From Desulfosudis oleivorans (GTDB lineage Bacteria > Desulfobacterota > Desulfobacteria > Desulfobacterales > SURF-7), in NCBI GenBank assembly GCA_020723325.1, contig DYJD01000003.1, positions 167,822 through 231,821 on the forward strand: a stretch of DNA of 64,000 nucleotides, read 5' to 3'. This document shows, in pieces, positions 25,453 through 43,884 of the stretch. The position numbers and the translations under genes are program-made. The notes under the pieces were generated by a model, which saw only the letters and a program-made list of their open reading frames with translations, did not search any database and had not been told where the DNA came from. Numbering within the stretch: the stretch's first letter is position 1; the number at the start of each line of letters is the position of its first letter.

Positions 25453-25513
25453 GAAGATGTGATAGTCATGTCCAGCAAGGTAAAATAGATTTGCAATTGT
25501 ATCTTTGATTGTC

Positions 25514-25531
25514 GGATGGGTTGTGCCCATC
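25514..25531. repeat. REP-like variant hairpin GGATGGGTTGTGCCCATC just upstream of the RAYT start
   Basis: GATGGG/CCCATC inverted repeat with a 5-nt loop, the same architecture as the family-1 REP. Confidence 0.5.
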
Positions 25532-25544
25532 AACAATGCGATCG

Positions 25545-26099
25545 ATGCCGAATTATAAAAGAGCCAAAAGTGGGGCAACCTATTTTTTCACGGTGGTGAC
25601 CCATGAACGCCGGCGGATATTGTGCTTGGAACAAAGTCGTGCGGTCTTGCGCTGGGTGATTCGGAATGTGCAGCTTGAATATCCTTTTACCATTGAGGCC
25701 TTTGTGTTGTTACCGGATCATCTCCATTGCATTTGGACTTTTCCAAAAGGAGATACGGATTATTCCAAGCGTTGGGGTATGATCAAAAAGGAGTTCACCA
25801 AACAGGTGCGGAATGATATCGAACGGTTGTTAGGCGAAGACCACCTCACGGAATCGAGAATTAAACATCGCGAGGCAGGTATTTGGCAACGGCGATTCTG
25901 GGAACATCTAATTCGGGATCAGAATGATTTTAACCGCCATTGTGATTATATCCACTATAATCCAGTAAAGCATGGATTGGTTTCCCAACCAAGTGAATGG
26001 GCGTATTCGTCCTTTCATCGGTTTGTAAAGGCAGGGAAATATGCGCCGGAATGGTGCGCCCCGGTTGATGTGGAATCACAAGCAGATTTTGGCGAGTAA
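25545..26099 (+). CDS. REP-associated tyrosine transposase (RAYT; IS200/IS605 Y1 transposase-like)
   Basis: MPNYKRAKSGATYFFTVVTHERR…FVLLPDHLHCIWTFP (HUH-type motif)…GIWQRRFWEHLIRD…YIHYNPVKHGLV (catalytic Tyr region). I prefer ATG 25545; the ORF track begins at TTG 25509. Confidence 0.9.
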   Translation: MPNYKRAKSGATYFFTVVTHERRRILCLEQSRAVLRWVIRNVQLEYPFTIEAFVLLPDHLHCIWTFPKGDTDYSKRWGMIKKEFTKQVRNDIERLLGEDHLTESRIKHREAGIWQRRFWEHLIRDQNDFNRHCDYIHYNPVKHGLVSQPSEWAYSSFHRFVKAGKYAPEWCAPVDVESQADFGE

Positions 26100-26258: not shown

Positions 26259-26320
26259 ATAGATACTTGGCCGAAATGTGATCGGCAAGTCTCGGCATTG
26301 ACCCTGGTTTTTTTACAAAT

Positions 26321-26341
26321 GTAGGGTGGGCTATGCCCACC
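26321..26341 (-). repeat. REP hairpin (family 1), inverted copy GTAGGGTGGGCTATGCCCACC
   Basis: Reverse complement of GGTGGGCATAGCCCACCCTAC, lying 62 nt from the 26238 copy (REPIN-like doublet). Confidence 0.85.
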
Positions 26342-26370
26342 AAAAAAACGTATATAAAACAAACCCCATA

Positions 26371-26531
26371 AAACGAAACTTAAATGGGTTGGCGATGATT
26401 ATATCCGGTAATAGGAATGATAGGAAAGGGGCCAGGAAATTATCTTATGACTCAATTTGAGGGGCGATGAATCGTTGCTGGATAAGGGATGCGGAGATGG
26501 AGAGGTCACGGCCGAAAAATCAAATCATCTG
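26371..26531 (+). pseudogene. decayed 5' remnant of a paralog of the methyltransferase gene at 27248
   Basis: DNA at 26371-26531 aligns by eye with 27267-27430 (e.g. ttgaggggcgatgaatcgTtgctggatAAgggAtgCggagatggaGaggtCacGgccgaaa vs ttgaggggcgatgaatcgCtgctggatGTgggGtgTggagatggaAaggtTacTgccgaaa). In the gene's frame the remnant reads TKLKWVGDDYIR**E**ERGQEIIL*LNLRGDESLLDKGCGDGEVTAEKSNHL, with multiple stops. Confidence 0.75.
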
Positions 26532-26637
26532 ATAAAATAATTCCAAATTACATGCCAGACGCGGGATATACTATAGCGCGCTGTGCTGCGCGGATCTTGG
26601 CTGACGACAACGGGCTTTATGGCTTTCGAACAGGGTT

Positions 26638-27108
26638 TTATGGGCAAAATCTTATCTTCATTGGTTTATCCGAAAATCTGTTTTTAATCAAATTTAGCAG
26701 TTCTGTTTTATGCACTGTAAATTCTTCCGGTTCAATTAAAAATAAAGCATGCTCACGAAGCATCTCAATATTAACTATGTTAGAAGTATAGTCTCCAGTG
26801 CATTTAAGAGAAATATAATGCTCTTCATGGAAATACCATCTTTTACAATTCTTCATATTGCATGAAGGACGATCTAAATTATAATGATACCCATGTGCTT
26901 TTGCAAAATTATCTATAATATCAATGAGTATTTCATAACCGTTTTCGTCGGTTTGAATGTTCAAATCAATATTTTTATCGGCTATTGTATTTACCTCAAG
27001 CTCCATAATATAACGTTGGTTACAAGAGCAAAAAACGATAGTCAGAAAAAAAATGATGAGAAAATAATTTAACCGCCGTCTCAGTCTTAAAAAAAGTAAT
27101 TTTTCCAT
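26638..27108 (-). CDS. hypothetical small secreted/lipoprotein (orphan, AT-rich)
   Basis: 156 aa. The N-terminus MEKLLFLRLRRRLNYFLIIFFLTIVFCSC looks like a signal peptide with a Cys. The gene is visibly more AT-rich than its surroundings, and I recognise no family motif. Confidence 0.5.
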   Translation of the reverse strand: MEKLLFLRLRRRLNYFLIIFFLTIVFCSCNQRYIMELEVNTIADKNIDLNIQTDENGYEILIDIIDNFAKAHGYHYNLDRPSCNMKNCKRWYFHEEHYISLKCTGDYTSNIVNIEMLREHALFLIEPEEFTVHKTELLNLIKNRFSDKPMKIRFCP

Positions 27109-27247
27109 AAGTCAGACCTTATGTAAGTTATTACCATTGATTTGCCTCCAAAATTTGGAAGAGGTGTTAAGCACTGAGTTAGAATTATCAGAAAGGAAAT
27201 GAAATAAGCAAGGCAAATTCAATTGTTTTGATCCCGCATGAGCGCCA

Positions 27248-28057
27248 ATGAAAAACGAACGAGAAAAAACAAAATTTAAATGGAATGCCGATGATTATGC
27301 CCGACATTCAGGCGTTCAACAAGAATGGGCCAGGGAGTTAATCACAAAGCTCAACTTGAGGGGCGATGAATCGCTGCTGGATGTGGGGTGTGGAGATGGA
27401 AAGGTTACTGCCGAAATAGCAAACCATCTGAAGGCCGGTAGCGTGGTAGGTGTCGACAGTTCGGAAGGAATGATCGATCTCGCCAAAAGGAATTTTCCGA
27501 TTCACGAATACCCGAATCTTAAATTCCAAATGCAAGATGCGCGGGAGCTGTCGTTTAACCAGGATTTTGATGTGGTCTTCTCCAATGCTGCTCTGCACTG
27601 GGTGCTTGACCACCGGCCTGTTCTCCAGGGGATTTATCGCGCTCTTAAATCCAATGGCCGTGTGGTTGCTCAAATGGGCGGCAAGGGCAATGCCGCATTG
27701 GTAATTGGTGTAGTCAATGCAATCATAACGCAAGGCCAATGGAAAAAGTTTTTTGAAAATTTTGCTTTTCCCTATGGCTTCTATTCCCCGGAGGAATATG
27801 CACCCTGGCTGCATGCTGCGGGATTTAGCGCTGTCAGTCTGGAACTCAAGCCCAAAGACATGGTTCATGAAAATATCGAGAAGTTTAAAGGGTGGGTACG
27901 AACCACTTGGTTGCCCTATCTCCAACGCATTCCCGAAAGATTGCAGGAGTTATTCATTAATGAAGTAACGGAAAAATATCTCCAAATAAATCCTCCGGAT
28001 CAAAGTGGAAAAATTCACACGGTAATGCAGCGGTTGGAGTATGAGGCCATCAAATAA
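27248..28057 (+). CDS. class I SAM-dependent methyltransferase (trans-aconitate methyltransferase-like)
   Basis: N-terminus KWNADDYARHSGVQQEWARELI, SAM motif I LLDVGCGDGKVT, and FDVVFSNAALHW. Confidence 0.8.
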   Translation: MKNEREKTKFKWNADDYARHSGVQQEWARELITKLNLRGDESLLDVGCGDGKVTAEIANHLKAGSVVGVDSSEGMIDLAKRNFPIHEYPNLKFQMQDARELSFNQDFDVVFSNAALHWVLDHRPVLQGIYRALKSNGRVVAQMGGKGNAALVIGVVNAIITQGQWKKFFENFAFPYGFYSPEEYAPWLHAAGFSAVSLELKPKDMVHENIEKFKGWVRTTWLPYLQRIPERLQELFINEVTEKYLQINPPDQSGKIHTVMQRLEYEAIK

Positions 28058-28063
28058 AAAATC

Positions 28064-28143
28064 GGCCTTGGTCATCGTTTCGGCCTTATCGCCACTGGAA
28101 GCCGCTCCCACAGTGGAGGATGGCCGAAACGATAATCAAGGCC
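28064..28143 (-). repeat. family-2 intergenic palindromic element, copy 2 (best preserved)
   Basis: GGCCTTGGTCATCGTTTCGGCC-ttatcgccactggaagccgctcccacagtggagga-tGGCCGAAACGATAATCAAGGCC. The 22-nt arms pair at 20/22 positions around the conserved core, which is inverted relative to copy 1. Confidence 0.85.
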
Positions 28144-28166
28144 AAAAAATCAAACTTGATAATCAT

Positions 28167-29006
28167 TTGAACAGCCGCTGGAAATCCATCAAGTTTATCA
28201 TCGCAATGATAATTGTTCTGATTGGGGGCCGACCACCCCTGGCCTTTTCGAGCAATGCAGGGTTGCTCACGGGTAATGCTGTCGAGGTGTTTCGCCGCGC
28301 GCAAAGTGGGCGTTGGTTTGCGGATGCACATAAATTAGAGCCTGATATTATTCCAACATCAGACGGCCAAAGCTTTCTTGTGGTGTGGCAAGGGACTGAA
28401 AAAGCCCCCAAGCGCTGGATTGTTTCCATCCATGGCAGCCGGGGCTTTGCCACGGACGATCTCGCCATCTGGCATCCGCATCTCAAGAACCGTGATGTTG
28501 GATTGATATGCCTGCAATGGTGGATCGGAACAGATGATACCAATAAGTCCTACTATATGCCGATGCAGATCTATCGCGAAATCGATATCGCGCTTCAGAA
28601 GATAGGCGCTTCACCTGGTAAGGTTATGCTCCACGGCTTCAGCCGCGGTTCGGCCAATTCCTATGCCATTACCGCCCTTGACTTCGGCCGGGGCAAGCGT
28701 TATTTCTCTCTTTCTGTTGCCAGCTCCGGAGGGGTCGGGCTGGATTATCCGTCGAATCGTGCCATTCTCACAGGTGCCTTTGGTGACCACCCGCTAAGAA
28801 ATACCCGCTGGATAACCGTGGCCGGCGCCCATGATCCAAACCCGGAGCGTGACGGCATTGCCGGAATGCGACGGGCAGCGACCTGGCTAAAGGAACAGGG
28901 CGCAATTGTCATTGAAAGCATTGAAGATCCCAATGAAGGCCATGGCGCGCTGCAGCGCAATGCAAATAATGCGAGGCGGGTCCTTGATTTATTTTTTAAA
29001 GAATAG
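28167..29006 (+). CDS. secreted alpha/beta-hydrolase-fold esterase-like protein
   Basis: Nucleophile-elbow-like motif HGFSRGS, plus WIVSIHGSRGF and a signal-like N-terminus (SRWKSIKFIIAMIIVLIGG). The ORF track starts at 28041, but that stretch is the palindromic repeat, so I favour TTG 28167 or ATG 28206. The start is uncertain. Confidence 0.55.
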   Translation: MNSRWKSIKFIIAMIIVLIGGRPPLAFSSNAGLLTGNAVEVFRRAQSGRWFADAHKLEPDIIPTSDGQSFLVVWQGTEKAPKRWIVSIHGSRGFATDDLAIWHPHLKNRDVGLICLQWWIGTDDTNKSYYMPMQIYREIDIALQKIGASPGKVMLHGFSRGSANSYAITALDFGRGKRYFSLSVASSGGVGLDYPSNRAILTGAFGDHPLRNTRWITVAGAHDPNPERDGIAGMRRAATWLKEQGAIVIESIEDPNEGHGALQRNANNARRVLDLFFKE

Positions 29007-29008
29007 CC

Positions 29009-29293
29009 ATGAGGAGCGGCCTGATGAAAAATAAGGTCTTGTTGATTCTTTTGATCGTTCTTGGCCTGTTTTGTGTCTTGATCTTTCGATCTGATATTGT
29101 TCTGAAGCCGGGAAGAATACTTATGAGCTACAAATGGAATGGATTCGGCTTTTCAGGAATCAAGGAGTACAAGACACCCCAGACCGGACAACATTTATCC
29201 CTTCGCAACGGCAATATCCTTTTAGTGGACGCCCACGGCACTATTGTTCAAGAAATCCCGATTAATTACTTCACCCCTGACAACATGTTTTGA
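29009..29293 (+). CDS. small hypothetical membrane-anchored protein
   Basis: 94 aa with an N-terminal helix MKNKVLLILLIVLGLFCVLIF. It starts 2 nt after the hydrolase stop and overlaps the convergent crotonase 3' end by 28 nt. Confidence 0.35.
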   Translation: MRSGLMKNKVLLILLIVLGLFCVLIFRSDIVLKPGRILMSYKWNGFGFSGIKEYKTPQTGQHLSLRNGNILLVDAHGTIVQEIPINYFTPDNMF

Positions 29294-29979
29294 AATGGAA
29301 TATCATGTTCAATAACAAAGGATTCCTCAAATCCAAGTTCCGAATTGTTATTTAAATAACTTTTCACAACCTTCAGTGTATCCAGTGGCGCTTCCAAAAT
29401 GGTTTTTCCGATCTGAACAGCCCTATCCAACAAATGAGCTTCATCCACAATTTCACTGACCAGGCACAGGCGCAGGGCTTCTTTTGCATCGATCTTTCTG
29501 CCGGTCAAACAGAGATCCCGAGCCATGGCATGGCCTACAATCCAGCGCAACGGTGTATACAGCGGCGGAGCCCCGAATTTGATCTCCGGATGGCCGAATA
29601 CAGCCGACGCCGTACAAATCCGGATATCGCAAAGCGTGGTTAAATCAAACCCCCCGCCCAAGGCATTATTGGCTATGGCCGCAATGGTGGGTTTGGGAAA
29701 ATGCCAAACATCCCGGTGATACGCAGCGGAAGACTGATAAACATCCTTTAATAGTTCCGGCCGGCTGAATTCTTTTAAATCAAAACCGGCTGAAAATGTG
29801 TTGCCGGCACCGGTGAAAATGACCACGCCCACGTCCGTCGCCGCCATCCAGTTTTTTAGACAGGCAGATATCTCCTCTCTCATTTTGATGGAAAGGGCAT
29901 TGCGTTTATCCGGTCGATTCAAGGTGATTGTTCCGATTCTGTCGCTTGTTACTTGGGTTAAAATTGTTTCAAAATTCAT
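29266..29979 (-). CDS. enoyl-CoA hydratase/isomerase (crotonase) family protein
   Basis: GTITLNRPDKRNAL, FTGAGNTFSAGFDLKEF and ALGGGFDL match the oxyanion-hole motifs. Confidence 0.85.
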   Translation of the reverse strand: MNFETILTQVTSDRIGTITLNRPDKRNALSIKMREEISACLKNWMAATDVGVVIFTGAGNTFSAGFDLKEFSRPELLKDVYQSSAAYHRDVWHFPKPTIAAIANNALGGGFDLTTLCDIRICTASAVFGHPEIKFGAPPLYTPLRWIVGHAMARDLCLTGRKIDAKEALRLCLVSEIVDEAHLLDRAVQIGKTILEAPLDTLKVVKSYLNNNSELGFEESFVIEHDIPFQNMLSGVK

Positions 29980-30083
29980 CAGTTACCTCCAGATTTTTTT
30001 TGTCTTAACTGGCCTTCAACTACTGATACAGCTTCTAAAGACTGTTTGTGACAAAATGCGCCGACACCGGATAAAAAAAAGGC

Positions 30084-31295
30084 CTAATTCAAAATAGAAA
30101 CCGTAGCCCTGAATTTCACAACAAACGGGAAGCTCAAAACATCGTTTTCAAAATCATGATATGTAGTGTTGTTCCATAGCAAAACACCAGGTAGTATTTC
30201 AGCGCCGATTTGCAGTTTTTTGTGTTGGACCAAGTGCAGACCGATACCGGCAGACAATTCAACGGCGCCGGTATTGTCGTTGCGTATAGTGGAGTTACCG
30301 ACTTGAATTGGATTTTCATAGGACCAGAACAAATGATTATACGCCAGTCCGAGAACAAAATATTGACCCAGGAAGGTATGGCGGGGGGTTGTAAAAAATT
30401 TATAATTGCCCCCAATGCTGAACCCACCCAAACCATGGTCGATGGACTGATCCAAGGTGCTGGTTTTTCTTATCGGCACCCACACCCCGCTCAAGTAAAT
30501 TTCCAAACGAGAATGCTCATCCAGATAGTCTCCCACACCGATCTGTAAGTGATTCCATTTTTCAAAATCAGCGCCCCGGATCAATCCGCTGCCACCACCC
30601 AAGATGACAAATGAATCCTTTTTCCGTTCTTGTTCGTCGTTTACTGGTTGATGGGTAGCTTTGGACTTTATGATTGGCGGCGCTTCCTGCTCCGCTTCCA
30701 TGTCGTTTTGTGCATCCAATTTCTGCTTTTCGATGGGAGTAAGTTCCAATTGCTCCATATTTCCCTCCGGCTCTGGAGAATCAGGGGGCGTTTCTGCTTT
30801 GAAAATATGAGTGTTCTGGGGCGGGGGTTGCAGATCACTTTCATCACTAACTTGCGGCTGCGTTGATTCTTGTTCACTGAAATTTGGACCCGCCAATTGA
30901 TCCGGCATTGGCTCTTCTTCCATTGAATCTTCTTCTTCTTCTTCAGTCTCATAACCGGGGAATGTCTGTTGATTTTTTTTCTGTGAATATTCGTAGTCTG
31001 TCCTTTCTTCGGGCTCCCCAAGGGTGATGTCCAACAGAGAAAACAGGCAGCTTCCACCGGATGAAGAAGAACCGGATTCCTTTGTTCTATGCTTCTGGTT
31101 CGAATATCTTTCCTGTGAATTGTGTCTTGTTCTATTGGTTCTGTCATCTGAATGTCTGTCCGAGGCTTTTTTCATGGCATCGCTCAATTTCCCACGGGAA
31201 TGGCCACCAGAAGCGCACCCGTAGAAAAACGGGGATAGCTGGATCAACAAGAATACCATGAACAAAGCGCGATAAAAATTCCGAGCCGGTAACAT
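30084..31295 (-). CDS. putative lipoprotein with acidic low-complexity linker and C-terminal beta-barrel-like domain
   Basis: Signal/lipobox-like region LLIQLSPFFYGCASGG, a long S/E/D/Q/P-rich tract (…GYETEEEEEDSMEEEPMPDQ…) and a C-terminal ~180 aa with an alternating hydrophobic pattern. Confidence 0.5.
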   Translation of the reverse strand: MLPARNFYRALFMVFLLIQLSPFFYGCASGGHSRGKLSDAMKKASDRHSDDRTNRTRHNSQERYSNQKHRTKESGSSSSGGSCLFSLLDITLGEPEERTDYEYSQKKNQQTFPGYETEEEEEDSMEEEPMPDQLAGPNFSEQESTQPQVSDESDLQPPPQNTHIFKAETPPDSPEPEGNMEQLELTPIEKQKLDAQNDMEAEQEAPPIIKSKATHQPVNDEQERKKDSFVILGGGSGLIRGADFEKWNHLQIGVGDYLDEHSRLEIYLSGVWVPIRKTSTLDQSIDHGLGGFSIGGNYKFFTTPRHTFLGQYFVLGLAYNHLFWSYENPIQVGNSTIRNDNTGAVELSAGIGLHLVQHKKLQIGAEILPGVLLWNNTTYHDFENDVLSFPFVVKFRATVSILN

Positions 31296-31698
31296 TTCAC
31301 TGATCTCCCATGGTTTCAGCTATGAATTCGATTGAATATTATATGCTTCAGTTCAAAAACCTTCAGCCTAATAACCTGACTTAAATAACTTCTAAAAAGC
31401 CGCTGATTGTCTTCCCAGATAAGACAGTCTTGTCCAACAATACAATACCCTCTGCTTTAAATTATGCGTAATTTTTTTTCTGGTATTCATATCTTACTTA
31501 ATTAACGATAAATATTTATCACATGAAAGACTTTGACAAGTTGGCATCCTTCTTGATTGTTTTTATGAATAAATGGAGCATTGCCGTGATGCCTGAATAG
31601 AACCGCATTAACATCAGTTCTAAAAGTGTTCAAGTCCGTCTTGATCGTACTGCTCCTAAATTCCATATGAATTGTCGCGAAAAAACAGGAGACGGACC

Positions 31699-32847
31699 AT
31701 GATGATCCCCGAAAAAAATCAAAACCCCAATGTTGTCCCGATTGATTCCAGTCACCTGTCAATGCTGGAACTGGAAATACACGCCCATAAGCGCAAGCAT
31801 GCTGATGACTTCCGGCAGGATGACGGGAAATGGACTTCCGGCAAACCCTCCGAAATCCTCAGTTGGGATGACATGCTGGATATGGTGGTATTGATCGACC
31901 CGGCCGGAGGCGTGCTCACGGCCAATGCAAGTTTTTATCGCACCATGGGGAGGATGAGAGGCCAAGGCACTCCATTGCGGTTCACCGACCTGGTGCATCC
32001 GCCGGATGTTCCCAAAGTGGAACGCTCCCTGATTCAGGCGCTTCATTTTGAGAAAGCTGTCAGCGGGCTTGAATTCCGGATTGCGATGCAAGACCGGATC
32101 ATGGATGTGGAATGCAATGCCGCAGGGGTCATCCGTGATAGACAGCTTGTCGGCTACCAACTGGTTGTCAGGGACATTACCGGCCGGAAATTGCTGGAGA
32201 GGGATCATGCCAAGGCCATCACCATTATAGGATTGGCCAAACTGGCTGAATTCCGGGATGAGGACACCGGTGCCCATCTGGAAAGAATCCGTGAATACTC
32301 GAGGATTTTGGCCAATGAGCTGAGTGACAAACCCAAATTTAAAGGCTATATCGACAGCGGCTATGTGGAGGACCTGTTTCAATCTTCGACCCTGCATGAT
32401 ATCGGCAAGGTGGGCATATCCGACCGAATTTTGTTGAAACCCGGCAAACTGACCGAAGAAGAATTCAATCTCATCAAACAGCATCCCCAGCTCGGCGGCG
32501 ATGTGCTCAGCAAGATCGACCGGCAGGTGGACAGCCGCTCCTTTCTCACCTTGGGAAAACAGATCGCCTATTATCACCATGAAAAATGGAACGGGACCGG
32601 GTACAGCAGCGGTCTGATGGGGGAGGCCATCCCGCTTTCCGCCAGAATCGTTGCCCTGGCCGATGTATACGACGCCCTGACCTCACGGAGATCTTATAAG
32701 GCAGCCTTCAGCCATGAAAAAGCCGGGGAAATCATTGCTGCTGAAAAGGGTACGCATTTTGATCCTGACATCGCGGATGCCTTCTTGGCCTGTGAAGGGG
32801 AATTCAACAAAATCCGAGGCAGCATGGGGGAAGCGGCAGTGGAATAA
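31699..32847 (+). CDS. PAS-domain HD-GYP phosphohydrolase (c-di-GMP phosphodiesterase family), copy 1
   Basis: HDIGKVGISDRILLKPGKLTEEEF…YHHEKWNGTGYSSGL are the HD and GYP motifs. AGGAGA lies 7 nt upstream of ATG 31699; the ORF track begins at TTG 31672. Confidence 0.85.
   Translation: MMIPEKNQNPNVVPIDSSHLSMLELEIHAHKRKHADDFRQDDGKWTSGKPSEILSWDDMLDMVVLIDPAGGVLTANASFYRTMGRMRGQGTPLRFTDLVHPPDVPKVERSLIQALHFEKAVSGLEFRIAMQDRIMDVECNAAGVIRDRQLVGYQLVVRDITGRKLLERDHAKAITIIGLAKLAEFRDEDTGAHLERIREYSRILANELSDKPKFKGYIDSGYVEDLFQSSTLHDIGKVGISDRILLKPGKLTEEEFNLIKQHPQLGGDVLSKIDRQVDSRSFLTLGKQIAYYHHEKWNGTGYSSGLMGEAIPLSARIVALADVYDALTSRRSYKAAFSHEKAGEIIAAEKGTHFDPDIADAFLACEGEFNKIRGSMGEAAVE
31758..32847 (+). repeat. direct repeat unit 1 of the HD-GYP gene pair (873 bp identical, then ~12% diverged)
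   Basis: 31758-32630 is base-for-base identical to 35713-36585 in every line I compared. From 32631/36586 to the stop codons I count 27 substitutions, of which 4 change an amino acid and 1 is in the stop codon. Confidence 0.9.
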
Positions 32848-33089
32848 ACATCTTTTTTATGAGCCCACGTCTTTGTAATCCGTAAAATCAAAATTTTCGA
32901 CCTCCCGCACTCCAAATGGGGGCGAATTAACTCAAATCAAAACGGTTATCCCTTTTCTTTCCACTCCGCCCTCTCTCAAAGGCGGTTCGCCGACAGAGCG
33001 ATCTGAGGCGTCCCGCCGGTGGATAGCGACGGTTCGCGAACCGCCCTTATGGCAAGGCCATCGCTTTGATTCTCAGGGTCAGCAGGCCT

Positions 33090-33127
33090 CCCTGGCTCTT
33101 CGGGGTCGGGGGTGCCCATTTTTTTTT
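33090..33127 (+). terminator. candidate Rho-independent terminator (9-bp stem, UUCG loop, T9 run)
   Basis: CCCTGGCTC-TTCG-GGGTCGGGG (33090-33111; three G-U pairs), then gtgccca, then a T9 run at 33119-33127. It lies ~245 nt after the HD-GYP copy 1 stop, at the end of a GC-rich structured stretch. Confidence 0.4.
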
Positions 33128-33565
33128 CGATACCGATTCCCATACCAAATAACGCCCCCGAAAAGAAACTACATGCCATTGCCCTGCCCCCGTGCCTCTA
33201 TTTGGAGACGGCTTATAACTATAATTGGTAATTGACGCACAATTTAACCTATAATATATAGTGGAAATCTTTTTGATATTCAATTCTTTGTGCCCAGGGA
33301 TAGTTCGTCGCACCTCCTCTCGGAGGGCATGATCACCTGGATGTGGGCTGGAACCAACAGCCCAAACTGACAAGTCTCCCAAATAATTATTGGCTGGGGG
33401 CTGGGAAATATAATCGGAATAATATCTCGAAAGCAGCACTAGGTTAAACTACCTAATTCAAATGAGAGGTATTGAGCTGCGCTTATTATTCGTTTGACCT
33501 GTCATTATAAACAGTTGGGCATCTTAGTTTTAGTATCTCAATAGATATCAATAGGATACACAAAT

Positions 33566-35584
33566 ATGTATAATGAAAAAACATTCAGAGAATTGAAACA
33601 AAGAATCATCGCGCTTGAGCGAGAGATATCCAACCATAAACAGACAGAAAAAATCCTGAGGGAAAAAAGTGACCTGTATCAAAAACTGTTGAACAACAGC
33701 AAGATTGTCACATACAGGCGCGAGCCGTCTGGGCAGTTTCCCATTACATTTATCAGCGAAAATATTTTCAAGTTATGTGGATATCAAAAAGAGACACTTA
33801 CCGATGATCCACAATTCTGGTCTGATCGCATTCATCCTGATGACAAGCAGCAAGTATTTTCCGATATGGCCTATCTCTTGGAGAAAGGTTGCTGCAGTCA
33901 TGATTATCGGTTTTTGCATGGTGATGGGATGTATCGCTGGGTACACGATGAGTTGGTTTTGATTCGGAATAAAGAGGGCCGCCCTGTGGATATTCTCGGT
34001 AATTGTTTGGACATTAGCGATCTCCAAAAGACGAAGGAGGCCGTAGATAAAACGCTGCTGCTTTTAAAGGCGAGTGTTGAGACGCTCAAAGGTGTTATTA
34101 TTTTTGCAATCGACACAGAATACCGGTATCTCTTTTTCAACGAAGTGCACAGAAAGGGCATGCGTGATGCCTATGGCACTGAGATTGCGGTTGGGAAAAA
34201 TATTCTTGATTGCATTGCAAAAAATTTTGACAGGCAAAAAGCCAAAACGGATTTTGACCGAGCACTAGCCGGGGAGAACCATATTTCGATTCATGAATAT
34301 GGTGAAATCCTTAAAGCATATTACGAAATTATTTTTAACCCCATCGTGAATGACAAGGGTGATATTATCGGAACCATTACCATTGCAACTGATATCACCG
34401 AAAGGATGCGTACGGAAAGATCGCTACGACAGATTGAAAAGATCGAAAGTCTCAAATGCATGGCAGGAGCTATCGCCCATCGTTTTAACAATCAACTTGG
34501 CGTGGTGATGGGCAATCTAGAACTCACTCTATCAGGTCTCCAGACTGATTTTACATTGCGTAATAATATCCAAAAGGCCCTGGAGGCCGCAAGGTGCTCT
34601 GCGGAAACCAGCGGATTGATGCTGGTTTATCTCGGCCAAAGCACAGTTGCTGGAGAACTCATCGATCTTTCCGATGTCTGCAGCCGGTACCTGCCAACCC
34701 TCGATGCATCGATTACAGATACGGTCATCTTTGAAACCGATTTCATGGATGCCGGCCCCATTGTTCTCGCCTCGGCCAGTCAAATGCAGCAGGTTATCGT
34801 CAATTTGATCAGGAATGCCGTCGAAGCCATGGGAAGCAATGATGAAAAGAAAATTATACTGACGACAGGCACTATTTTACCCCATGATCTACCGAAATCT
34901 CATCTGGTACCTCCAGATTTCAAACCCACTGCGAATAGATACGCCTATCTTGAAATCACTGACTCAGGAACTGGAATTGCAGAGGAACATTTAGACAAAC
35001 TTTTTGACCCTTTCTTTTCTACCAGATTCCCGGGGAGAGGGTTGGGCCTGGCGGTATTATTGGGGATCATAACCCAATGGGATGGTGCTGTCCATGTTGA
35101 CAGTAAGACTGGAGGCGGAGCTTCCTTTCGTGTTTTTTTACCGTTACAGGGCAGCGAAGCCATTCCTCTTGCTCCAGAGGCCGCCCCCATTCGATTGGTT
35201 GACAGACCCATGCACAGCGTATTGCTGGTGGAGGATGAAGATACTGTTCGGGAAATGTTTGAGAAATTGCTCGAACACCTTGGCTATTCAGTCCATTCGG
35301 CAAAGAATGGAGCAGGGGCCATCGCGTTTTTTGAGCAGCATCAAAATGAAGTCGGTTGCGTCATCACAGATTTGACCATGCCCGATATGAATGGATGGGC
35401 ACTGATCGCTGCATTGCGGGGGATAGACCCGGATATTCCGATTATACTGGCCAGTGGATACGACGAAACCGATGTTATGGGAGGCAGGCAATCAGAGCGT
35501 CCTCAAGTGTTTCTTCATAAACCATTTATGCTGAACGATCTGAATGCTGCTTTACGAAAGGCTATGGATAAATCCCTAAGCTAA
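33566..35584 (+). CDS. hybrid sensor histidine kinase (coiled coil, PAS domains, HisKA, HATPase, C-terminal receiver)
   Basis: H-box region MAGAIAHRFNNQLGVVMGNLEL, ATPase G-boxes ITDSGTGI and GRGLGLAV, and receiver VLLVEDEDTVREM…ITDLTMPDMNG. Confidence 0.9.
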   Translation: MYNEKTFRELKQRIIALEREISNHKQTEKILREKSDLYQKLLNNSKIVTYRREPSGQFPITFISENIFKLCGYQKETLTDDPQFWSDRIHPDDKQQVFSDMAYLLEKGCCSHDYRFLHGDGMYRWVHDELVLIRNKEGRPVDILGNCLDISDLQKTKEAVDKTLLLLKASVETLKGVIIFAIDTEYRYLFFNEVHRKGMRDAYGTEIAVGKNILDCIAKNFDRQKAKTDFDRALAGENHISIHEYGEILKAYYEIIFNPIVNDKGDIIGTITIATDITERMRTERSLRQIEKIESLKCMAGAIAHRFNNQLGVVMGNLELTLSGLQTDFTLRNNIQKALEAARCSAETSGLMLVYLGQSTVAGELIDLSDVCSRYLPTLDASITDTVIFETDFMDAGPIVLASASQMQQVIVNLIRNAVEAMGSNDEKKIILTTGTILPHDLPKSHLVPPDFKPTANRYAYLEITDSGTGIAEEHLDKLFDPFFSTRFPGRGLGLAVLLGIITQWDGAVHVDSKTGGGASFRVFLPLQGSEAIPLAPEAAPIRLVDRPMHSVLLVEDEDTVREMFEKLLEHLGYSVHSAKNGAGAIAFFEQHQNEVGCVITDLTMPDMNGWALIAALRGIDPDIPIILASGYDETDVMGGRQSERPQVFLHKPFMLNDLNAALRKAMDKSLS

Positions 35585-35712
35585 TCTCGCAAGGGTGCTT
35601 GAGGAACGTAGTGCCCTATCTCGGCTGTTTTCGTTCCAAGCTTTTATATAACCGTTTAACCGAAACAATTTAAAAAATATTTAATATTTAAGATGTGACC
35701 CCTATTCTTTCA

Positions 35713-36802
35713 GTCAATGCTGGAACTGGAAATACACGCCCATAAGCGCAAGCATGCTGATGACTTCCGGCAGGATGACGGGAAATGGACTTCCGGCAAA
35801 CCCTCCGAAATCCTCAGTTGGGATGACATGCTGGATATGGTGGTATTGATCGACCCGGCCGGAGGCGTGCTCACGGCCAATGCAAGTTTTTATCGCACCA
35901 TGGGGAGGATGAGAGGCCAAGGCACTCCATTGCGGTTCACCGACCTGGTGCATCCGCCGGATGTTCCCAAAGTGGAACGCTCCCTGATTCAGGCGCTTCA
36001 TTTTGAGAAAGCTGTCAGCGGGCTTGAATTCCGGATTGCGATGCAAGACCGGATCATGGATGTGGAATGCAATGCCGCAGGGGTCATCCGTGATAGACAG
36101 CTTGTCGGCTACCAACTGGTTGTCAGGGACATTACCGGCCGGAAATTGCTGGAGAGGGATCATGCCAAGGCCATCACCATTATAGGATTGGCCAAACTGG
36201 CTGAATTCCGGGATGAGGACACCGGTGCCCATCTGGAAAGAATCCGTGAATACTCGAGGATTTTGGCCAATGAGCTGAGTGACAAACCCAAATTTAAAGG
36301 CTATATCGACAGCGGCTATGTGGAGGACCTGTTTCAATCTTCGACCCTGCATGATATCGGCAAGGTGGGCATATCCGACCGAATTTTGTTGAAACCCGGC
36401 AAACTGACCGAAGAAGAATTCAATCTCATCAAACAGCATCCCCAGCTCGGCGGCGATGTGCTCAGCAAGATCGACCGGCAGGTGGACAGCCGCTCCTTTC
36501 TCACCTTGGGAAAACAGATCGCCTATTATCACCATGAAAAATGGAACGGGACCGGGTACAGCAGCGGTCTGATGGGGGAGGCCATTCCGCTCTCCGCCAG
36601 AATCGTGGCCTTGGCGGATGTTTATGACACCCTGACTTCGCGAAGATCCTACAAGGCGGCCTTCAGTCATGAAAAAGCCGGGGAAATCATCGCTGCTGAA
36701 AGGGGCACGCATTTTGATCCTGACATCGCGGATGCGTTTTTAGCCTGCGAAGGTGAATTCAACAAAATCCGATGCAGCATGGGTGAAGCGTCAGTGGAAT
36801 GA
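35713..36802 (+). repeat. direct repeat unit 2 of the HD-GYP gene pair
   Basis: See 31758-32847. The offset between copies is 3955 bp. Confidence 0.9.
35717..36802 (+). CDS. PAS-domain HD-GYP phosphohydrolase, copy 2 (N-terminally shorter paralog)
   Basis: 361 aa, identical to copy 1 over MLELEIH…GEAIPLSARIVALADVYD, then 4 aa differences. An in-frame TGA lies 6 codons upstream of ATG 35717, and no SD is visible. Confidence 0.8.
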   Translation: MLELEIHAHKRKHADDFRQDDGKWTSGKPSEILSWDDMLDMVVLIDPAGGVLTANASFYRTMGRMRGQGTPLRFTDLVHPPDVPKVERSLIQALHFEKAVSGLEFRIAMQDRIMDVECNAAGVIRDRQLVGYQLVVRDITGRKLLERDHAKAITIIGLAKLAEFRDEDTGAHLERIREYSRILANELSDKPKFKGYIDSGYVEDLFQSSTLHDIGKVGISDRILLKPGKLTEEEFNLIKQHPQLGGDVLSKIDRQVDSRSFLTLGKQIAYYHHEKWNGTGYSSGLMGEAIPLSARIVALADVYDTLTSRRSYKAAFSHEKAGEIIAAERGTHFDPDIADAFLACEGEFNKIRCSMGEASVE

Positions 36803-36946
36803 GCACTTATCTGTTCAGGCAACTGTTGTCTCTTGATCCGGCAATAGAAGTTGAGCCAAAATGATATCAACTTAATATGTATATATTATGTATATATATC
36901 AAGATCATTTTTTGATCGTGCAGATCTACGGCGGTTGAAAGCCATT

Positions 36947-38251
36947 CTACAAAGCCTTTTCTATCCCTTTGAAAATTTCTTCTATATCTTGATCATTTAA
37001 AGTCAGCGGCGGGCGAATGATTACACAATTTTTTGCGACTTCACCTGTTTTTAAAAAAACGCCATTTTTGATCGTACTCCGGCAAAATATTGCCGCATCT
37101 TCCGGGCTTTCCAGGCTCAATGCCAGAAGCAGTCCAATGCCGTCCACCGATTTGATTTTCGAATTTGAAGCCGCCAGTGCTTCCAATTTTTGTTTAAGTT
37201 TCTCTCCTTGTCGCTTGGCATTTTCCCATGGCCTGACTTGATCATACACAGCCAATGCTGTTGCTGCGACGCGACAGCCCACATCATGCCCTCCAAAGGT
37301 TAGCAAATGAATTAACGGGTGCACATCAAAGAATTTCTTCAGAAGTCTTGTAAATATCATCGCACCTATGGGAAACATGCCGCCGCTCAAGGCTTCACCG
37401 ACAAGCATGATATGAGGCAACACTCCGAAATAATCCGCTGCAAACTTTTCCCCGGTTCGGCCGAATCCGGTTTGAGATTCATCGAAAATGAGGAGCGCAC
37501 CCACTTTGTCGCAGGCAACTCGTAATTCCTGAAGATAGATTTTATCGGCAGTCCTACAACCATTTTCAGCTTGAACCGGTTCCAGAATAACGGCGGCTGT
37601 TCGTTTTGTGATGGCCTTGCGCGCAACACTGATGTCATTAAACGGTATTGTTTTAATATCCGGAATCAACGACCCGAAATGCTTTTTATCCGATCGTTCC
37701 GACAGGGACATGGCAAATCCGGTCTGACCGTACCAACCTCCGTCCACGGTGATCAACTCGGATCTCGCCGTATACCCTCTGGCAAGTTTGCAGGCAGCAT
37801 CCATGGCCTCACCTCTCACCACGGTAAACAAGACACAATCCAGCGTACGGGGTGTGAATTTAGCTATTTTTTTCGCCAGCTCCGCTTTTTCTTTGGAAAT
37901 CATGACAAAGTTTCCTTGATCTGTTTCACGAATGGCGCGTCTCAGCTCGGCGGTAATGTCCGAATTTTTCCTTCCCAGATTATAGCTGCCGGCTGAGGTA
38001 TAACAATCCAGAAATACCTTCCCATCACCATTAAAAATCGTGGTGTTTTCCCGTTTGCATTCCTCCCATTCCATTCCCCGGGCTTTCAGATTGTTCACAA
38101 ATCCTTTCCCAAATACCTTTTGAGCGTCAATTATCAGGTTATGGGACGGTTCTCCTTGCTCATTCACGATTTTTTGTAATTTTAACGATTTTTCAATCGG
38201 ATCTTTTTCTTTTTTGATTACAGCAACCTTTTCCTGTGCTGATGTCGTCAT
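36947..38251 (-). CDS. class-III aminotransferase-fold protein lacking the PLP Schiff-base lysine (Lys to Glu)
   Basis: The fold motif LIFDESQTGFGRTGEKFA is present. At the position where the neighbour has DIMVLAKSFGGG, this protein has HIMLVGEALSGG. EPVQAENGC also replaces the usual EPxQGEGG. I prefer ATG 38251 (MTTSAQEK) because GGAGG lies 8 nt upstream. Confidence 0.75.
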   Translation of the reverse strand: MTTSAQEKVAVIKKEKDPIEKSLKLQKIVNEQGEPSHNLIIDAQKVFGKGFVNNLKARGMEWEECKRENTTIFNGDGKVFLDCYTSAGSYNLGRKNSDITAELRRAIRETDQGNFVMISKEKAELAKKIAKFTPRTLDCVLFTVVRGEAMDAACKLARGYTARSELITVDGGWYGQTGFAMSLSERSDKKHFGSLIPDIKTIPFNDISVARKAITKRTAAVILEPVQAENGCRTADKIYLQELRVACDKVGALLIFDESQTGFGRTGEKFAADYFGVLPHIMLVGEALSGGMFPIGAMIFTRLLKKFFDVHPLIHLLTFGGHDVGCRVAATALAVYDQVRPWENAKRQGEKLKQKLEALAASNSKIKSVDGIGLLLALSLESPEDAAIFCRSTIKNGVFLKTGEVAKNCVIIRPPLTLNDQDIEEIFKGIEKAL

Positions 38252-38280
38252 GTCACAACCTCCGGTGGTTTTACGTTTGG

Positions 38281-39663
38281 TTAATTCCAAAATGCAAACT
38301 TGCGCAACCAAACATTAAATGTGATTAAAATATTTCCTTTGTTCAGCATATCCCGTATAAAAGGAATCTTTGAAAGCGGACCCAAGGCAATCAAATACAG
38401 TTTCATCAATCTAATCGCTTTTCGGATGATCGTAAGGATTTCATCGATATCTTGCTCTGTTGCAGCCGTGGGAAGCTGGAATCGCATGACCTGGGGTGCA
38501 TTACCGGAATAGGCGGCAAACATACCATTGGATGCTAAACAGTCGGCCATCAAAATTCCCATGAATTCCTGCTTATACTCAACGCCCACCATCATGCCTC
38601 TGCCGCGGACCTCCCAAATGATGTCTGAATTCTCATCTCGCAACCGACGGAGCCCTCCTAAAAAACGTTCACCCATTTTAGCGACATTTTCCCAAATTTT
38701 ATTTTCAACTATGTAGTCAATCACTGAACTGGAAACTATGCAGCCCAAATCTGAACCACCTCCCAATGAGGTATGGAATTCCGGATTCTGGTCCACAAAA
38801 TTTGTCAGAACGCTGCTATCCCGATATAGAATCGCAGCGTTCGGATACAAACCACCACCAAATGATTTCGCAAGCACCATAATATCCGGTACAACCCTTG
38901 AATGATCCGAGGCCCATAGTTTGCCAGTTCTTCCAAACCCGGTTTGGATCTCGTCAAATATTAGCATTATTCCATACTGATCGCAGATTTCTCTCAATCC
39001 GTTGAGATAATTGTCTGCAGCCACATGGATACCACCTTCTCCTTGAATCGGTTCCAGGATGATCCCGGCCGTGTGCTGGGAAACCATTTGACCTATGGCG
39101 GCAAGATCGCCGAACGGTGCAAATCGGAAGCCCGGCATTAACGGCTGAAATAGTTCCTTATAATAATCTTTCCCATTTGCCGACAGACTCATACCCGAGT
39201 GGCCGTGATAGGCTTTGGTCATGGAGATAATTTCATTACGTCCGGTTGCGCCCCTTGCCAGTTTTAACGCTCCTTCAATCGCATCGGCGCCGGTTCCGCA
39301 AAGCAAGACGCGATTCAAGTCACCCGGTGCAACCGCTACGAGCTTTTTAGCGAGTTCGATCTTTGGGGCGGACAACATGCCATAGGTGCCCATGTCATAA
39401 TCATCCAAAGCCGTTTCCAGTGCTTGAATGATTTGTCGATTACAACGTCCGACATTAAAACATCCCGCTGATGAAAACCCATCAATAAAGGCCCGGCCAG
39501 ATCTGCTTTCATGAAAACGAATCCCATTGCGTTCACCTTCCAAAATATCTAAATGCCCTGCGGATAAGTATCTAATCTGTCCTTTGGATATATGTTTTCC
39601 AAACATTTCAAAAATTTGATCCCGATCTCTCTTTGAGATGGTCTCAGGGCTTGCTGCGTTCAT
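38281..39663 (-). CDS. class-III (omega-amine type) PLP-dependent aminotransferase
   Basis: ILEPIQGEGG, LIFDEIQTGFGRTGKLWA and the catalytic-Lys motif VLAKSFGGG. It carries a ~40-aa hydrophobic C-terminal extension. Confidence 0.85.
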   Translation of the reverse strand: MNAASPETISKRDRDQIFEMFGKHISKGQIRYLSAGHLDILEGERNGIRFHESRSGRAFIDGFSSAGCFNVGRCNRQIIQALETALDDYDMGTYGMLSAPKIELAKKLVAVAPGDLNRVLLCGTGADAIEGALKLARGATGRNEIISMTKAYHGHSGMSLSANGKDYYKELFQPLMPGFRFAPFGDLAAIGQMVSQHTAGIILEPIQGEGGIHVAADNYLNGLREICDQYGIMLIFDEIQTGFGRTGKLWASDHSRVVPDIMVLAKSFGGGLYPNAAILYRDSSVLTNFVDQNPEFHTSLGGGSDLGCIVSSSVIDYIVENKIWENVAKMGERFLGGLRRLRDENSDIIWEVRGRGMMVGVEYKQEFMGILMADCLASNGMFAAYSGNAPQVMRFQLPTAATEQDIDEILTIIRKAIRLMKLYLIALGPLSKIPFIRDMLNKGNILITFNVWLRKFAFWN

Positions 39664-39755
39664 GATGATTTCTCCCTTCTTAATTCGGGTAGATTATGGT
39701 GGCCGTTGCATTTTTGTTTCGACTGTGGTCTGGTGAAAATGTCCTGATTTTATAA

Positions 39756-40670
39756 TCAGTGCAGTTTCAGCAATTGGGCAGCATTTTCATATAGTATTTT
39801 TCTTTCTAGTTTGGGGTTACAACTACAGGCCACTTTTACCGCTTTGAGCCCTGCTTGCCGACTTCCAAAGGGCCAGTCCGATCCGAAAAGCACTTTGTCT
39901 TCACCAAAAACATCAATTAAATCTCTTATCGACTCAGGTGATTGCAGGGAAGTATCCACCCAGATATGATTATATCCGCCCAAGAGTCTAATCACCTCTT
40001 TTACGTCATACATACCGGCATGCCCTACAATAAATTTTGCACCCGGATATGCAGAAACCAAAGCCCTCGCTTCCTTGATAGTGCCATATTCCGGAATGTT
40101 ATGTTTTTTTTCCTTACCTGTGTAGTAATTGGAGATGCCCGCATGGAATAAAATAGGCAGGTCAAATCTCATAAATGAACGAACAGCGCGCAGCATGCGC
40201 TCATCTGTAAATGGAACCTTTTGGATTATCGGATGAAGCTTCAGACCTTTTGCACCCTGCTTTATTTCCTCGGCAAACTGTATTTCCAGTTGCTCCATAT
40301 GAGTAAAATCAACACCTGTGAAGGGTATCAGTCCAGGATCCTTTTCTGAAGCCTGCTTCACGTCAGAGAAGGATACATGGGGTGGGAGAGGTAAGCACAC
40401 AGAAGAAGTTATCCCGGTTGCGTTCATTGACTTTCGTGCATTTTCCCGTGTGGCCGTGAAATTTCGCTCTTGTTCGGCCCTGATAATCCAGCGCAAAAAT
40501 AATCTATAGGGCAGGGTCCCCATTCCATAGTTTCGATTTAAGCTCATTTGCCATATGGAAATCGGGTCAAATATCAATTTCTTGCGAATCCCTTTGTGTT
40601 CAATAATGCGCCCGCCGTCTGGATATAAGATATCACCTACATGAGAATGAGCATCGATTATCGGGGGCAT
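39756..40670 (-). CDS. amidohydrolase-2 family metal-dependent hydrolase (TIM barrel)
   Basis: N-terminal MPPIIDAHSHVG is the His-x-His metal motif; also FHAG and GHAG. GAGGAGA lies before ATG 40670. Confidence 0.7.
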   Translation of the reverse strand: MPPIIDAHSHVGDILYPDGGRIIEHKGIRKKLIFDPISIWQMSLNRNYGMGTLPYRLFLRWIIRAEQERNFTATRENARKSMNATGITSSVCLPLPPHVSFSDVKQASEKDPGLIPFTGVDFTHMEQLEIQFAEEIKQGAKGLKLHPIIQKVPFTDERMLRAVRSFMRFDLPILFHAGISNYYTGKEKKHNIPEYGTIKEARALVSAYPGAKFIVGHAGMYDVKEVIRLLGGYNHIWVDTSLQSPESIRDLIDVFGEDKVLFGSDWPFGSRQAGLKAVKVACSCNPKLERKILYENAAQLLKLH

Positions 40671-40699
40671 AATTTCTCCTCTTTTTGATCGTTTTATGA

Positions 40700-41806
40700 T
40701 CAATTAATGTATTGGCTGCACTCCATCTTAAGCGAATCGGCGACTTTGTCGTTCATCAACTGCCCTTGAAAAACATTGAGGCCTTTTGCCAGTGGGATAT
40801 TCTCCTCAATAGCCTTTTCACATCCTTTTTCTGCTAGTTCCAGTGCGAAGGGCAGGGTGGCATTGGTAAGTGCATATGTGGAGGTAACCGGCACTGCGCC
40901 GGGCATGTTGGTTACGCAATAATGCACTACACCATTTTCTTCAAATATCGGTTTATCATGGGTCGTTGGTCTGCTACTTTCCGCGCAGCCGCCCTGATCG
41001 ATAGCGATGTCGACAAATGCGGCCCCGGTTTTCATACTTGAAAGCATTTCCCGACTGATCAACTTCGGTGCCCTAGCTCCCGGGATCAGAACAGAACCGA
41101 TGATTAGGTCCGCACCTGCAATACTCTCTGCGATGTTAGCCGGATTTGACATCATGGTGACAATTCTGGAATGGAAAATATCTTCAAGATAGCGGAGGCG
41201 ATCTATGTCAATGTCTAAAATCGTTACCCTGGCACCCATCCCCACCGCAAGGTGGGCTGCATTAAGCCCCGATATTCCACCGCCGATGATGGTTACCTGG
41301 GCGGGAGGTACACCAGGAACACCTGACAGCAACATGCCCCGTCCACCATTTTTAGATTCGAGACAGTAGCATCCCATCTGCACGGCGAGACGTCCCGCCA
41401 CCTCACTCATAGGAGCAAGCAAGGGCAAGCTGCCATCTTCCCGCTGAATGGTCTCATAAGCGATACCAACAACCTTTTTTTCAAGCAACTTCAGGGTGAG
41501 CTCTCTATCCGCGGCAAGATGGAGATAGGTAAAAAGGATCTGGCCTGGACGCATTATTTCAAATTCATGCCCCAGCGGTTCCTTGACCTTGACAATCATT
41601 TCCGCTTCATACCAGACACTGTCGGCATCCGGTAGAATGACCGCCCCTGCTCGCTCAAAGGCCTTATCAGAAAGGCCTGAACCAATGCCCGCCTCTTTTT
41701 CAATATAGACGGTATGGCCTTTGGCGATAAAAGCCTCGACACCTGCCGGAGTAAGTGCCACCCGCTTCTCCATATTTTTAATTTCTTTTGGGACTCCGAT
41801 TTCCAT
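40700..41806 (-). CDS. ald: L-alanine dehydrogenase
   Basis: [23 protein letters not shown]… matches the canonical Ald N-terminus, with an NAD-binding region [22 protein letters not shown] lies before ATG 41806. Confidence 0.85.
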
Positions 41807-41862
41807 TTTGCACCTCAAAAATTTCAATTTTTAAACTGTCTTTAGAACGAAAAAATAATTTT

Positions 41863-41908
41863 AATTTAGTTTGTTGACTAACATAATAAATTTAGTCTGT
41901 CAACTAAC
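41863..41908. promoter_or_regulatory. two tandem palindromic operators AATTTAGT-N6-ACTAAC (candidate TetR sites)
   Basis: AATTTAGTttgttgACTAAC (41863-41882) and AATTTAGTctgtcaACTAAC (41889-41908). Each has a TTAGT/ACTAA inverted repeat. Centres are 26 nt apart. The sites lie 57-102 nt upstream of ald, in the ald/TetR divergent region. Confidence 0.6.
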
Positions 41909-42133
41909 TTTTTTTTATGTTATTTAAATCATGGATGTATATATTTTCTGGCGTACCAAATACTATTTATGATTGTTTGTTTTTCGGCTTCATATATTTC
42001 GGACTATTTAGCCGTTGCCATTACAATATTTTTTCGGTAAGGGGCGATGAGGTAAAAAGAATTTTGATGAGAAAGGGGCGCCCTCTCAAAGATTGCTAAA
42101 CACAGAAGATAGAGAACTATCAGGATAAGAAAT

Positions 42134-42724
42134 ATGAGCCGCAGAAGTGTACAAGCGGAAAGACGGCAACAAATAATGGAAGCTTTACATAAATGTCTGC
42201 TGGAAAAGCCGTTTGATCAGACCTCAATTAAGGATATCGCCGCAACCGCCCAAATAAACTATGGCGCGCTGCACTACTATTTTGAGAGTAAGGAGGATAT
42301 CCTATTAAATTATATTGAATACCTGATCGAACGTTATAAATCGTTTTTTGAAGAATGGATTCAATCAAATAGCTCCTCCATGCAAGACCCAAAAGACTTT
42401 CTTCGTGCTAGCATTGATTTCGTGCACCATAAAATAACTTTGAATCAGGATCTATCTAAAATTTTTATCGAAATCTGGGAAATCGCTATTTATAACTCGA
42501 AGGTTAAGGAAAAGCTCCAAAAAGCCTATACTGAATGGATTGAAACCGTTAACCTGGCAATTCTCAAAGTCACCGCAAACAAGACTACGGCCGCCCGCCT
42601 GAGCGTTGGATTGGCTGCCTTTTGGGAGGGCATTTCTCTATTTTCGATCATTCTCGATGAGAAAACAATTGAAGCAGGAGCACTTCTCAAGGACTTTCAG
42701 GAACAGTTCCTAAAATTTTTGTAA
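42134..42724 (+). CDS. TetR/AcrR-family transcriptional regulator
   Basis: The N-terminal HTH RRQQIMEALHKCLLEKPFDQTSIKDIAATAQINYGALHYYFESKEDIL is the classic TetR signature. Confidence 0.9.
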   Translation: MSRRSVQAERRQQIMEALHKCLLEKPFDQTSIKDIAATAQINYGALHYYFESKEDILLNYIEYLIERYKSFFEEWIQSNSSSMQDPKDFLRASIDFVHHKITLNQDLSKIFIEIWEIAIYNSKVKEKLQKAYTEWIETVNLAILKVTANKTTAARLSVGLAAFWEGISLFSIILDEKTIEAGALLKDFQEQFLKFL

Positions 42725-43864: not shown

Positions 43865-43884
43865 AAAACGGCTAACGGAACAAA

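Follow-up and report, generated by a model that had tools for sequence, protein, structure and literature searches.

The window analysed in this study is a stretch of 64,000 nt of Desulfosudis oleivorans DNA (GenBank assembly GCA_020723325.1, contig DYJD01000003.1, positions 167,822 to 231,821 of the forward strand). Near its middle, two paralogous genes for PAS + HD-GYP proteins, called copy 1 and copy 2 here, flank a hybrid histidine kinase gene and point the same way (Table 1). The two copies share a homologous module of 1090 nt, which begins 4 nt ahead of a Met codon inside copy 1 and ends with the stop codon. The first 80% of this module is identical in the two copies (repeat R) and the last 20% is 12.4% diverged (tails X1 and X2). 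This mosaic of identity and divergence, and the recombination that may have produced it, are the subject of this study.

Identity and divergence between the two copies

Direct comparison of the two instances of R gave 0 mismatches over 873 nt, and no leftward extension of the identity was possible. From positions 32631 and 36586 to the stop codons there were 27 substitutions, comprising 22 synonymous changes, 4 replacements (A/T, K/R, G/C and A/S) and a TAA versus TGA stop codon. The right-hand switch was abrupt and without a gradient: the first 82 nt of the tail held 15 of the 27 differences (18%), the final 135 nt held the other 12 (9%), and the longest identical runs within the tail were 29 and 23 nt. 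The switch lies at copy-1 residue 311, within the HD-GYP domain (Pfam 181-358) and just past the motif HHEKWNGTGYS (293-303), so it marks neither a domain boundary nor a boundary of functional constraint. The left edge lies inside the reading frame of copy 1, and identity begins 4 nt upstream of the copy-2 ATG (35717). No homology was found outside 31758-32847 and 35713-36802, where local alignments scored no better than shuffles, and gapped extensions anchored at both outer limits of the module, also judged against shuffles, found nothing. At the left junction, a TTYCAGTCA match that requires an indel of 7 nt was considered as residual homology and rejected because it was not significant. The identical tract thus ends on the right inside homologous sequence and on the left at the limit of detectable homology. 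The initial annotation of this DNA had described the 873-nt perfect identity, the 27 tail substitutions (4 replacements and 1 in the stop codon) and the onset of identity 4 nt before the copy-2 ATG behind unrelated upstream regions. The direct comparison, a codon-by-codon count and the local and edge-anchored alignments, respectively, gave the same results.

A GENECONV-type run-length test was applied to the two copies. Given 27 differences in 1090 sites, the probability that the longest identical run reaches at least 873 nt was at most 8.5e-19, and with third codon positions only the probability of the identical run was at most 4e-15. By the Nei-Gojobori method, the proportion of synonymous differences (pS) in the tail was 0.44, the synonymous and nonsynonymous divergences per site (dS and dN) were 0.66 and 0.025, respectively, and dN/dS was 0.037. 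These values are consistent with two lineages that diverged early and have both been under purifying selection. The identical tract has approximately 195 synonymous sites, and at the rates of the tail approximately 85 synonymous and 16 replacement differences would be expected in it, whereas 0 were observed. Constraint at the nucleotide level cannot explain a tract with 0 of approximately 85 expected synonymous differences, and for all of the approximately 100 differences expected in 80% of the gene to be absent, the copies must have been homogenised recently. An old duplication with purifying selection on both copies, followed by a recent homogenising conversion tract, had been proposed in the initial annotation together with a gene-conversion test. 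The first part is supported by the tail dS and dN/dS and the second by the missing differences and the run-length probability; orthologs aside, the test between the two copies was significant.

The G + C content at third codon positions (GC3) also sets the two copies apart from their surroundings. Both had a GC3 of 0.62 (tract 0.64, each tail 0.556), whereas every other gene in the surrounding low-GC 27-43 kb stretch (27248-43864), the kinase included, had a GC3 of 0.42-0.54. In L081, which carries a homolog with 62% identity, the GC3 of that homolog was 0.48, lower than in the majority of the genes around it (most 0.52-0.67), so the HD-GYP family is not intrinsically GC3-rich. The high GC3 of both copies would fit either long-acting GC-biased conversion or a different origin of the module. 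The difference in GC3 between tract and tail was not significant (approximately 1.4 standard errors, estimated from counts). The GC3 and codon differences of the tails were also tried as a means of polarising the event, but with the same value in both tails they were uninformative.

Table 1. Features of the locus in window coordinates
Feature	Position	Strand	Remarks
Copy 1, PAS + HD-GYP gene	31699..32847	+	382 aa from ATG 31699; Pfam HD_5 E=3e-30
Repeat R, copy-1 instance	31758..32630	+	873 nt; PAS + HD-GYP through HHEKWNGTGYS
Tail X1	32631..32847	+	final 72 codons of copy 1 and stop; 12.4% different from X2; ancestral Ala after metal-ligand Asp (DVYDALTS)
Spacer between copy 1 and kinase	32848..33565	.	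718 nt; promoter-like site 33462-33489 (+)
Hybrid histidine kinase, PAS-PAS-HATPase-REC	33566..35584	+	672 aa; GC3 0.46; between the two copies
Gap between kinase stop and copy-2 ATG	35585..35716	.	132 nt, AT-rich; last 4 nt (35713-35716) part of the repeat
Repeat R, copy-2 instance	35713..36585	+	873 nt
Copy 2, PAS + HD-GYP gene	35717..36802	+	361 aa; public protein P0001
Tail X2	36586..36802	+	final 72 codons of copy 2 and stop; Thr at a column with Ala in 119/119 homologs

Read-level support for the repeat

For a view of the reads we used the assembly that Logan provides for run SRR13164373, which is built from a de Bruijn graph with k=31 and is separate from the public assembly; its contigs were located through three neighbouring proteins recorded in it. 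By design, any given 31-mer is present a single time in Logan contigs (PMC12424806), so that contigs meeting at a repeat overlap the repeat by k-1 = 30 nt. Three contigs matched the window with 0 mismatches, L086 at 26312-31787, L085 at 32601-35742 and L082 at 36556-45923. The four contig ends at R (31787, 32601, 35742 and 36556) each lay exactly 30 nt inside the 873-nt repeat. With all four ends k-1 inside R, the reads join one shared sequence to two upstream contexts and two tails, and the topology of the graph is a loop (U to R, R to X1-B, B to R, R to X2). In the public NCBI assembly both proteins are on one contig of 382,420 nt, which passes the locus once. The outer ends of L086 (26312) and L082 (45923) are inside the window as well, the latter within a molybdopterin oxidoreductase gene (44322-46592), and they imply that SRR13164373 contains additional exact repeats, 31 nt or longer, or strain variants.

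Encoded proteins, expression context and relatives

Both copies matched Pfam HD_5 (PF13487) with an E value of approximately 3e-30 (105.5 bits against a cut-off of 27.2), and the HD and PAS folds were recovered too. The closest solved structures were HD-GYP phosphodiesterases, namely PA4781 (4R8Z, E=1e-46), PmGH (4MCW) and the cyclic GMP-AMP (cGAMP) phosphodiesterase of V. cholerae (5Z7C). Both genes are predicted to encode phosphodiesterases of cyclic di-GMP (c-di-GMP) of the PAS + HD-GYP type. The HD dyad (LHDIGK) and the HHE motif show no variation among 119 homologs, and both copies have them. In place of the canonical HHExxDGxGYP both copies have HHEKWNGTGYS, where the Pro is found in 117 of the 119 homologs and the Asp in 111. 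The copies look like members of a small clade in which the GYP motif has degenerated; the two closest homologs carry Trp in place of the Pro. The Thr in the tail of copy 2 directly follows the conserved Asp of DVYDALTS, at a column where all 119 homologs have Ala, and it hints, in small numbers, that the constraint on copy 2 may be slightly relaxed or shifted. PA4781, PmGH and the 5Z7C enzyme resemble the two proteins in the HD_5 domain, the HD dyad and the HHE motif. They differ in that the input domain here is PAS and not REC, that GYS stands for GYP and HHEKWNG for HHEKWDG, and that activity and substrate are predictions here.

Read from the ATG at 31699, copy 1 has 21 codons more than copy 2 and an AGGAGA Shine-Dalgarno (SD) motif 6 nt upstream; the public annotation starts it at the ATG at 31702 (381 aa, P0121). 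For copy 2, six sense codons separate the ATG from an in-frame stop, TGA, at the 7th codon upstream, and in 35585-35716 no terminator-like site, promoter-like site or SD motif was found. An obvious SD motif at the first ATG is likewise absent from approximately one third of the window's genes, so the missing motif of copy 2 is weak evidence about its expression. Because no terminator-like or promoter-like site separates them, copy 2, if it is expressed, is probably co-transcribed with the kinase. The 21 extra codons and the AGGAGA motif of copy 1 had been noted before and were found again here. The same holds for the missing SD motif of copy 2 and its position 132 nt behind the kinase, while the in-frame stop earlier placed '6 codons upstream' is a trivial difference of wording. 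The spacer 32848-33565 matched no family and no Rfam entry, and no Rfam family reached its gathering score anywhere in the window. Antisense open reading frames (ORFs) of 273 and 332 aa at 31759-32580 (-) and 35714-36712 (-), respectively, are in register with the sense codons and stop at the left edge of the repeat. Of the 27 tail differences, 21 are at third codon positions of the sense strand. This pattern supports sense-strand coding only, so we rejected these ORFs as genes and took them as frame artefacts.

The nearest HD-GYP homologs in the protein search were 66% and 62% identical and showed no synteny with the locus. No third copy was on record, as the 90% protein cluster consisted of the two window proteins only and the next match was at 66%. 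No orthologous pair was found in a scan of genome contigs, where the best identity was 52%. Around the 62% homolog in L081 there were no kinase and no shared neighbours, no homolog of the kinase above 45% identity over most of its length was found, and an exact 32-nt sequence of the tract was absent from the JGI metagenome contigs. The names of the homologs point to Desulfobacterota/Thermodesulfobacteriota. In L083 and L084, the nearest relatives found, the aminotransferase that adjoins the copies is 79% identical, but no HD-GYP gene lies beside it. In the window this aminotransferase gene (36947-38251, -) forms a tandem pair of class-III aminotransferase paralogs with 38281-39663 (-). The pair is kept in L083 and L084, where the counterpart of 36947-38251 is approximately 79% identical and the other neighbours differ.

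Linked PAS-HD-GYP pairs in two related metagenome-assembled genomes, L005 (9308-15936) and L006 (9311-15309), served as a control. The paralogs of these pairs were approximately 46% identical throughout, with no near-identical tract, and they showed clear orthology between the genomes (a-a 74%, b-b 69%). This indicates that unconverted pairs of the PAS-HD-GYP family diverge along the whole gene. The paralogs in L005 and L006 are longer than those studied here; the L005 pair flanks a HAMP-GGDEF gene, and the L006 pair flanks a PilZ-PAS-sigma54 activator. The layout of two phosphodiesterases around a regulator therefore recurs in L005 and L006.

Genes for c-di-GMP and two-component signalling abound in the region: 12-16 kb downstream, 48770-51070 (+) encodes a second PAS hybrid histidine kinase and 52155-53648 (-) a third, distant HD-GYP/HDIG protein with 33% identity. 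At 6672-17993 (-) there is a single modular polyketide synthase of 3773 aa with the order acyltransferase (AT), AMP-binding, acyl carrier protein (ACP), ketosynthase (KS), dehydratase (DH), ketoreductase (KR), ACP, KS, ACP and terminal reductase, whose two KS modules resemble each other at 72-85% over short stretches; the next gene is that of a BcrAD/BadFG-type activase (3673-6645). An intergenic repeat of approximately 80 nt with the palindromic core GCGGCTTCCAGCCGC occurs at 2203-2280, 28060-28143, 59946-59994 and 63326-63408, in both orientations and with 78-97% identity. The ORF at 25509-26099 has a weak IS200/Y1-transposase-like match (E=1.6e-5) and is the sole Y1-transposase-like ORF. 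These repeats and this ORF may form a system of the type in which repetitive extragenic palindromic (REP) sequences are paired with a REP-associated tyrosine transposase (RAYT).

Origin of the mosaic

We believe that two old paralogs underwent recent or recurrent non-reciprocal recombination, that is, gene conversion, over their 5' 80%, and we regard this as the probable explanation. An old duplication of the 1090-nt module would have given two direct-orientation PAS/HD-GYP paralogs around the hybrid histidine kinase, and both would have been kept functional for a long time, as suggested by a dS of approximately 0.66 and a dN/dS of approximately 0.04 where they still differ. RecA-type non-reciprocal recombination, recent or repeated, would then have overwritten the 5' 80% of one paralog and erased the approximately 100 expected differences. 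The tract would have reached the left limit of homology and ended on the right where the next 82 nt are 18% diverged. The diverged tail speaks for an old split and the identical tract for a recent common origin, and the two can be reconciled only through recombination, of which non-reciprocal transfer between linked paralogs is the simplest form here. The classical two-sided form of the conversion, its direction, and one event as against continuing concerted evolution belong, as does its recency, to a mechanism that we infer.

Several observations weigh against gene conversion of this kind. Conversion is rare between sequences that differ by 12%. On the left the tract stops together with all detectable homology, where two-sided conversion at 12% divergence needs an identical anchor, and there is no zone of diverged homology at the left edge versus 217 nt of it on the right; this asymmetry suggests that the left junction could be young. 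If concerted evolution had gone on for a long time, both edges should be eroded. Copy 2 has neither an SD motif nor its own promoter-like site. No ortholog is close enough to show a conflict between the trees of tract and tail, the nearest being at 66% and 62% for the HD-GYP proteins and at 45% for the kinase. Bubble popping during assembly could conceal a few differences inside R.

The asymmetry of the edges also allows a one-sided or import event, which we consider unlikely on balance. Here the left junction 35712|35713 would be a recent illegitimate or microhomology join, and homology would have resolved only the right end. In the one-sided version, a double-strand break or template switch would have replaced the 5' part and the start region of an old copy 2 with 31758-32630 of copy 1; in the import version, a single resident gene would have been duplicated when a relative's DNA, with a diverged tail and the kinase on it, was integrated with the help of homology. 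Such an event would account for a left edge at which 100% identity gives way to nothing, with no eroded homology, and for a junction inside the reading frame of copy 1 and not at a natural gene start. The missing SD motif and promoter-like site of copy 2 and the Thr in its tail also point this way, as does the GTCA at the junction, of which copy 1 has a second one 10 nt upstream, although this microhomology lacks significance. It would take a lucky accident to have an in-frame ATG 4 nt from the junction, and the low dN/dS of the tail fits such an event and gene conversion equally. The import version moreover requires a three-way event. In composition the kinase and the spacers are like the resident genes that flank them and do not look foreign; with a GC3 of 0.46, like the 0.42-0.54 of the flanking genes, the kinase together with X1 does not fit a recent foreign insert.

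The arrangement could also be right in kind and wrong in number, if the 3955-nt unit were amplified in tandem or if deleted cells and an excised circle were mixed in the sample, so that the one pass in the assembly would only reflect an assembler convention; we think this improbable. The loop R-X1-kinase-R in the Logan graph permits it, as a k=31 graph cannot count passes, and direct repeats of 873 nt are generally good RecA substrates; but the public contig crosses the locus once, a circle of 3955 nt would carry no replication function, and the mosaic pattern itself would be left in place. It is very unlikely that the copies differ throughout and that software made the first 873 nt identical, an assembly error that the initial annotation had raised as its alternative (one paralog copied onto the other). 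De Bruijn assemblers do pop bubbles, and a few copy-specific differences in R were possibly flattened. However, bubble popping cannot merge sequences that differ approximately every 8 nt, so that 'perfect' would at most become 'nearly perfect', and a second assembler, which would have run straight through a copy 2 with approximately 12% divergence, broke exactly k-1 inside R at four edges. Extreme constraint at the nucleotide level on the 5' 873 nt, without any recombination, has next to no probability in view of the approximately 85 synonymous differences expected over approximately 195 synonymous sites, the position of the switch inside a domain, and homologs that vary freely across the region of the tract. 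Two kinds of mobile unit were considered and rejected. An integrative element of the e14/icd type does not fit a locus with no integrase or recombinase between the copies, only the spacer and the kinase, and a duplication that includes the 5' 80%. A composite transposon or a unit bounded by insertion sequences does not fit repeats that are PAS/HD-GYP coding sequence, with no transposase at their ends and no inverted repeats in 29-40 kb.

Beyond a partial homogenisation of the two paralogs by gene conversion, we speculated, at rather long odds, about concerted evolution of long standing. Recurrent GC-biased conversion would keep the sensor and most of the catalytic module identical and would explain the high GC3, and the repeats would make the kinase cassette a reversible dosage or on-off switch in the population, driven by recombination through deletion, a circle or amplification.

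RecA can act well on direct repeats of 873 nt at a distance of 3955 nt, so the 3955-nt unit should be open to both deletion and amplification, and the locus is predicted to be structurally unstable. The predicted deletion would leave one chimeric full-length gene with the start of copy 1 and the tail of copy 2 and would remove the kinase, so that loss or amplification of the kinase is predicted to yield a chimeric phosphodiesterase. Short-read assemblies would break at this locus or miscount the loop, and phylogenies of these genes must handle tract and tail separately. Studies have shown that deletion between paralogs produces chimeric genes, for example cpsG/manB in the E. coli long-term evolution experiment and icd/icdC at the excision of e14 (Maddamsetti & Orman 2026, PMC13626634), and that such genes arise readily in E. 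coli evolution experiments (PMC13626634). As in the cpsG/manB type, direct-repeat paralogs bracket other genes at the present locus. In contrast to cpsG/manB and icd/icdC, both copies and the kinase are still present here, the deletion is only predicted, and no prophage or integrase lies between the copies.

Textbook cases of ectopic gene conversion or concerted evolution in bacteria are tufA/tufB in Salmonella, the nifH copies in Rhizobium etli and the rRNA operons. That bacterial paralogs undergo partial gene conversion and evolve in concert is well established (Wang & Chen 2018, PMC6053082). The present pair is similar to the known cases in that paralogs of the same genome share a far more similar tract with a sharp end, which would reflect non-reciprocal transfer. 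It differs from them in that the genes concerned are signalling genes and not highly expressed core genes, and in that the tract reaches the edge of homology on one side. In the known cases the defining criterion is phylogenetic, with paralogs closer to one another than they are to orthologs, whereas in this study the call rests on the run-length and synonymous-site criteria. The locus is a new example of a well-known process and involves no new mechanism; it offers a clean and statistically unambiguous partial homogenisation of paralogous second-messenger signalling genes, with read-level support, in a host lineage without a close sequenced relative.

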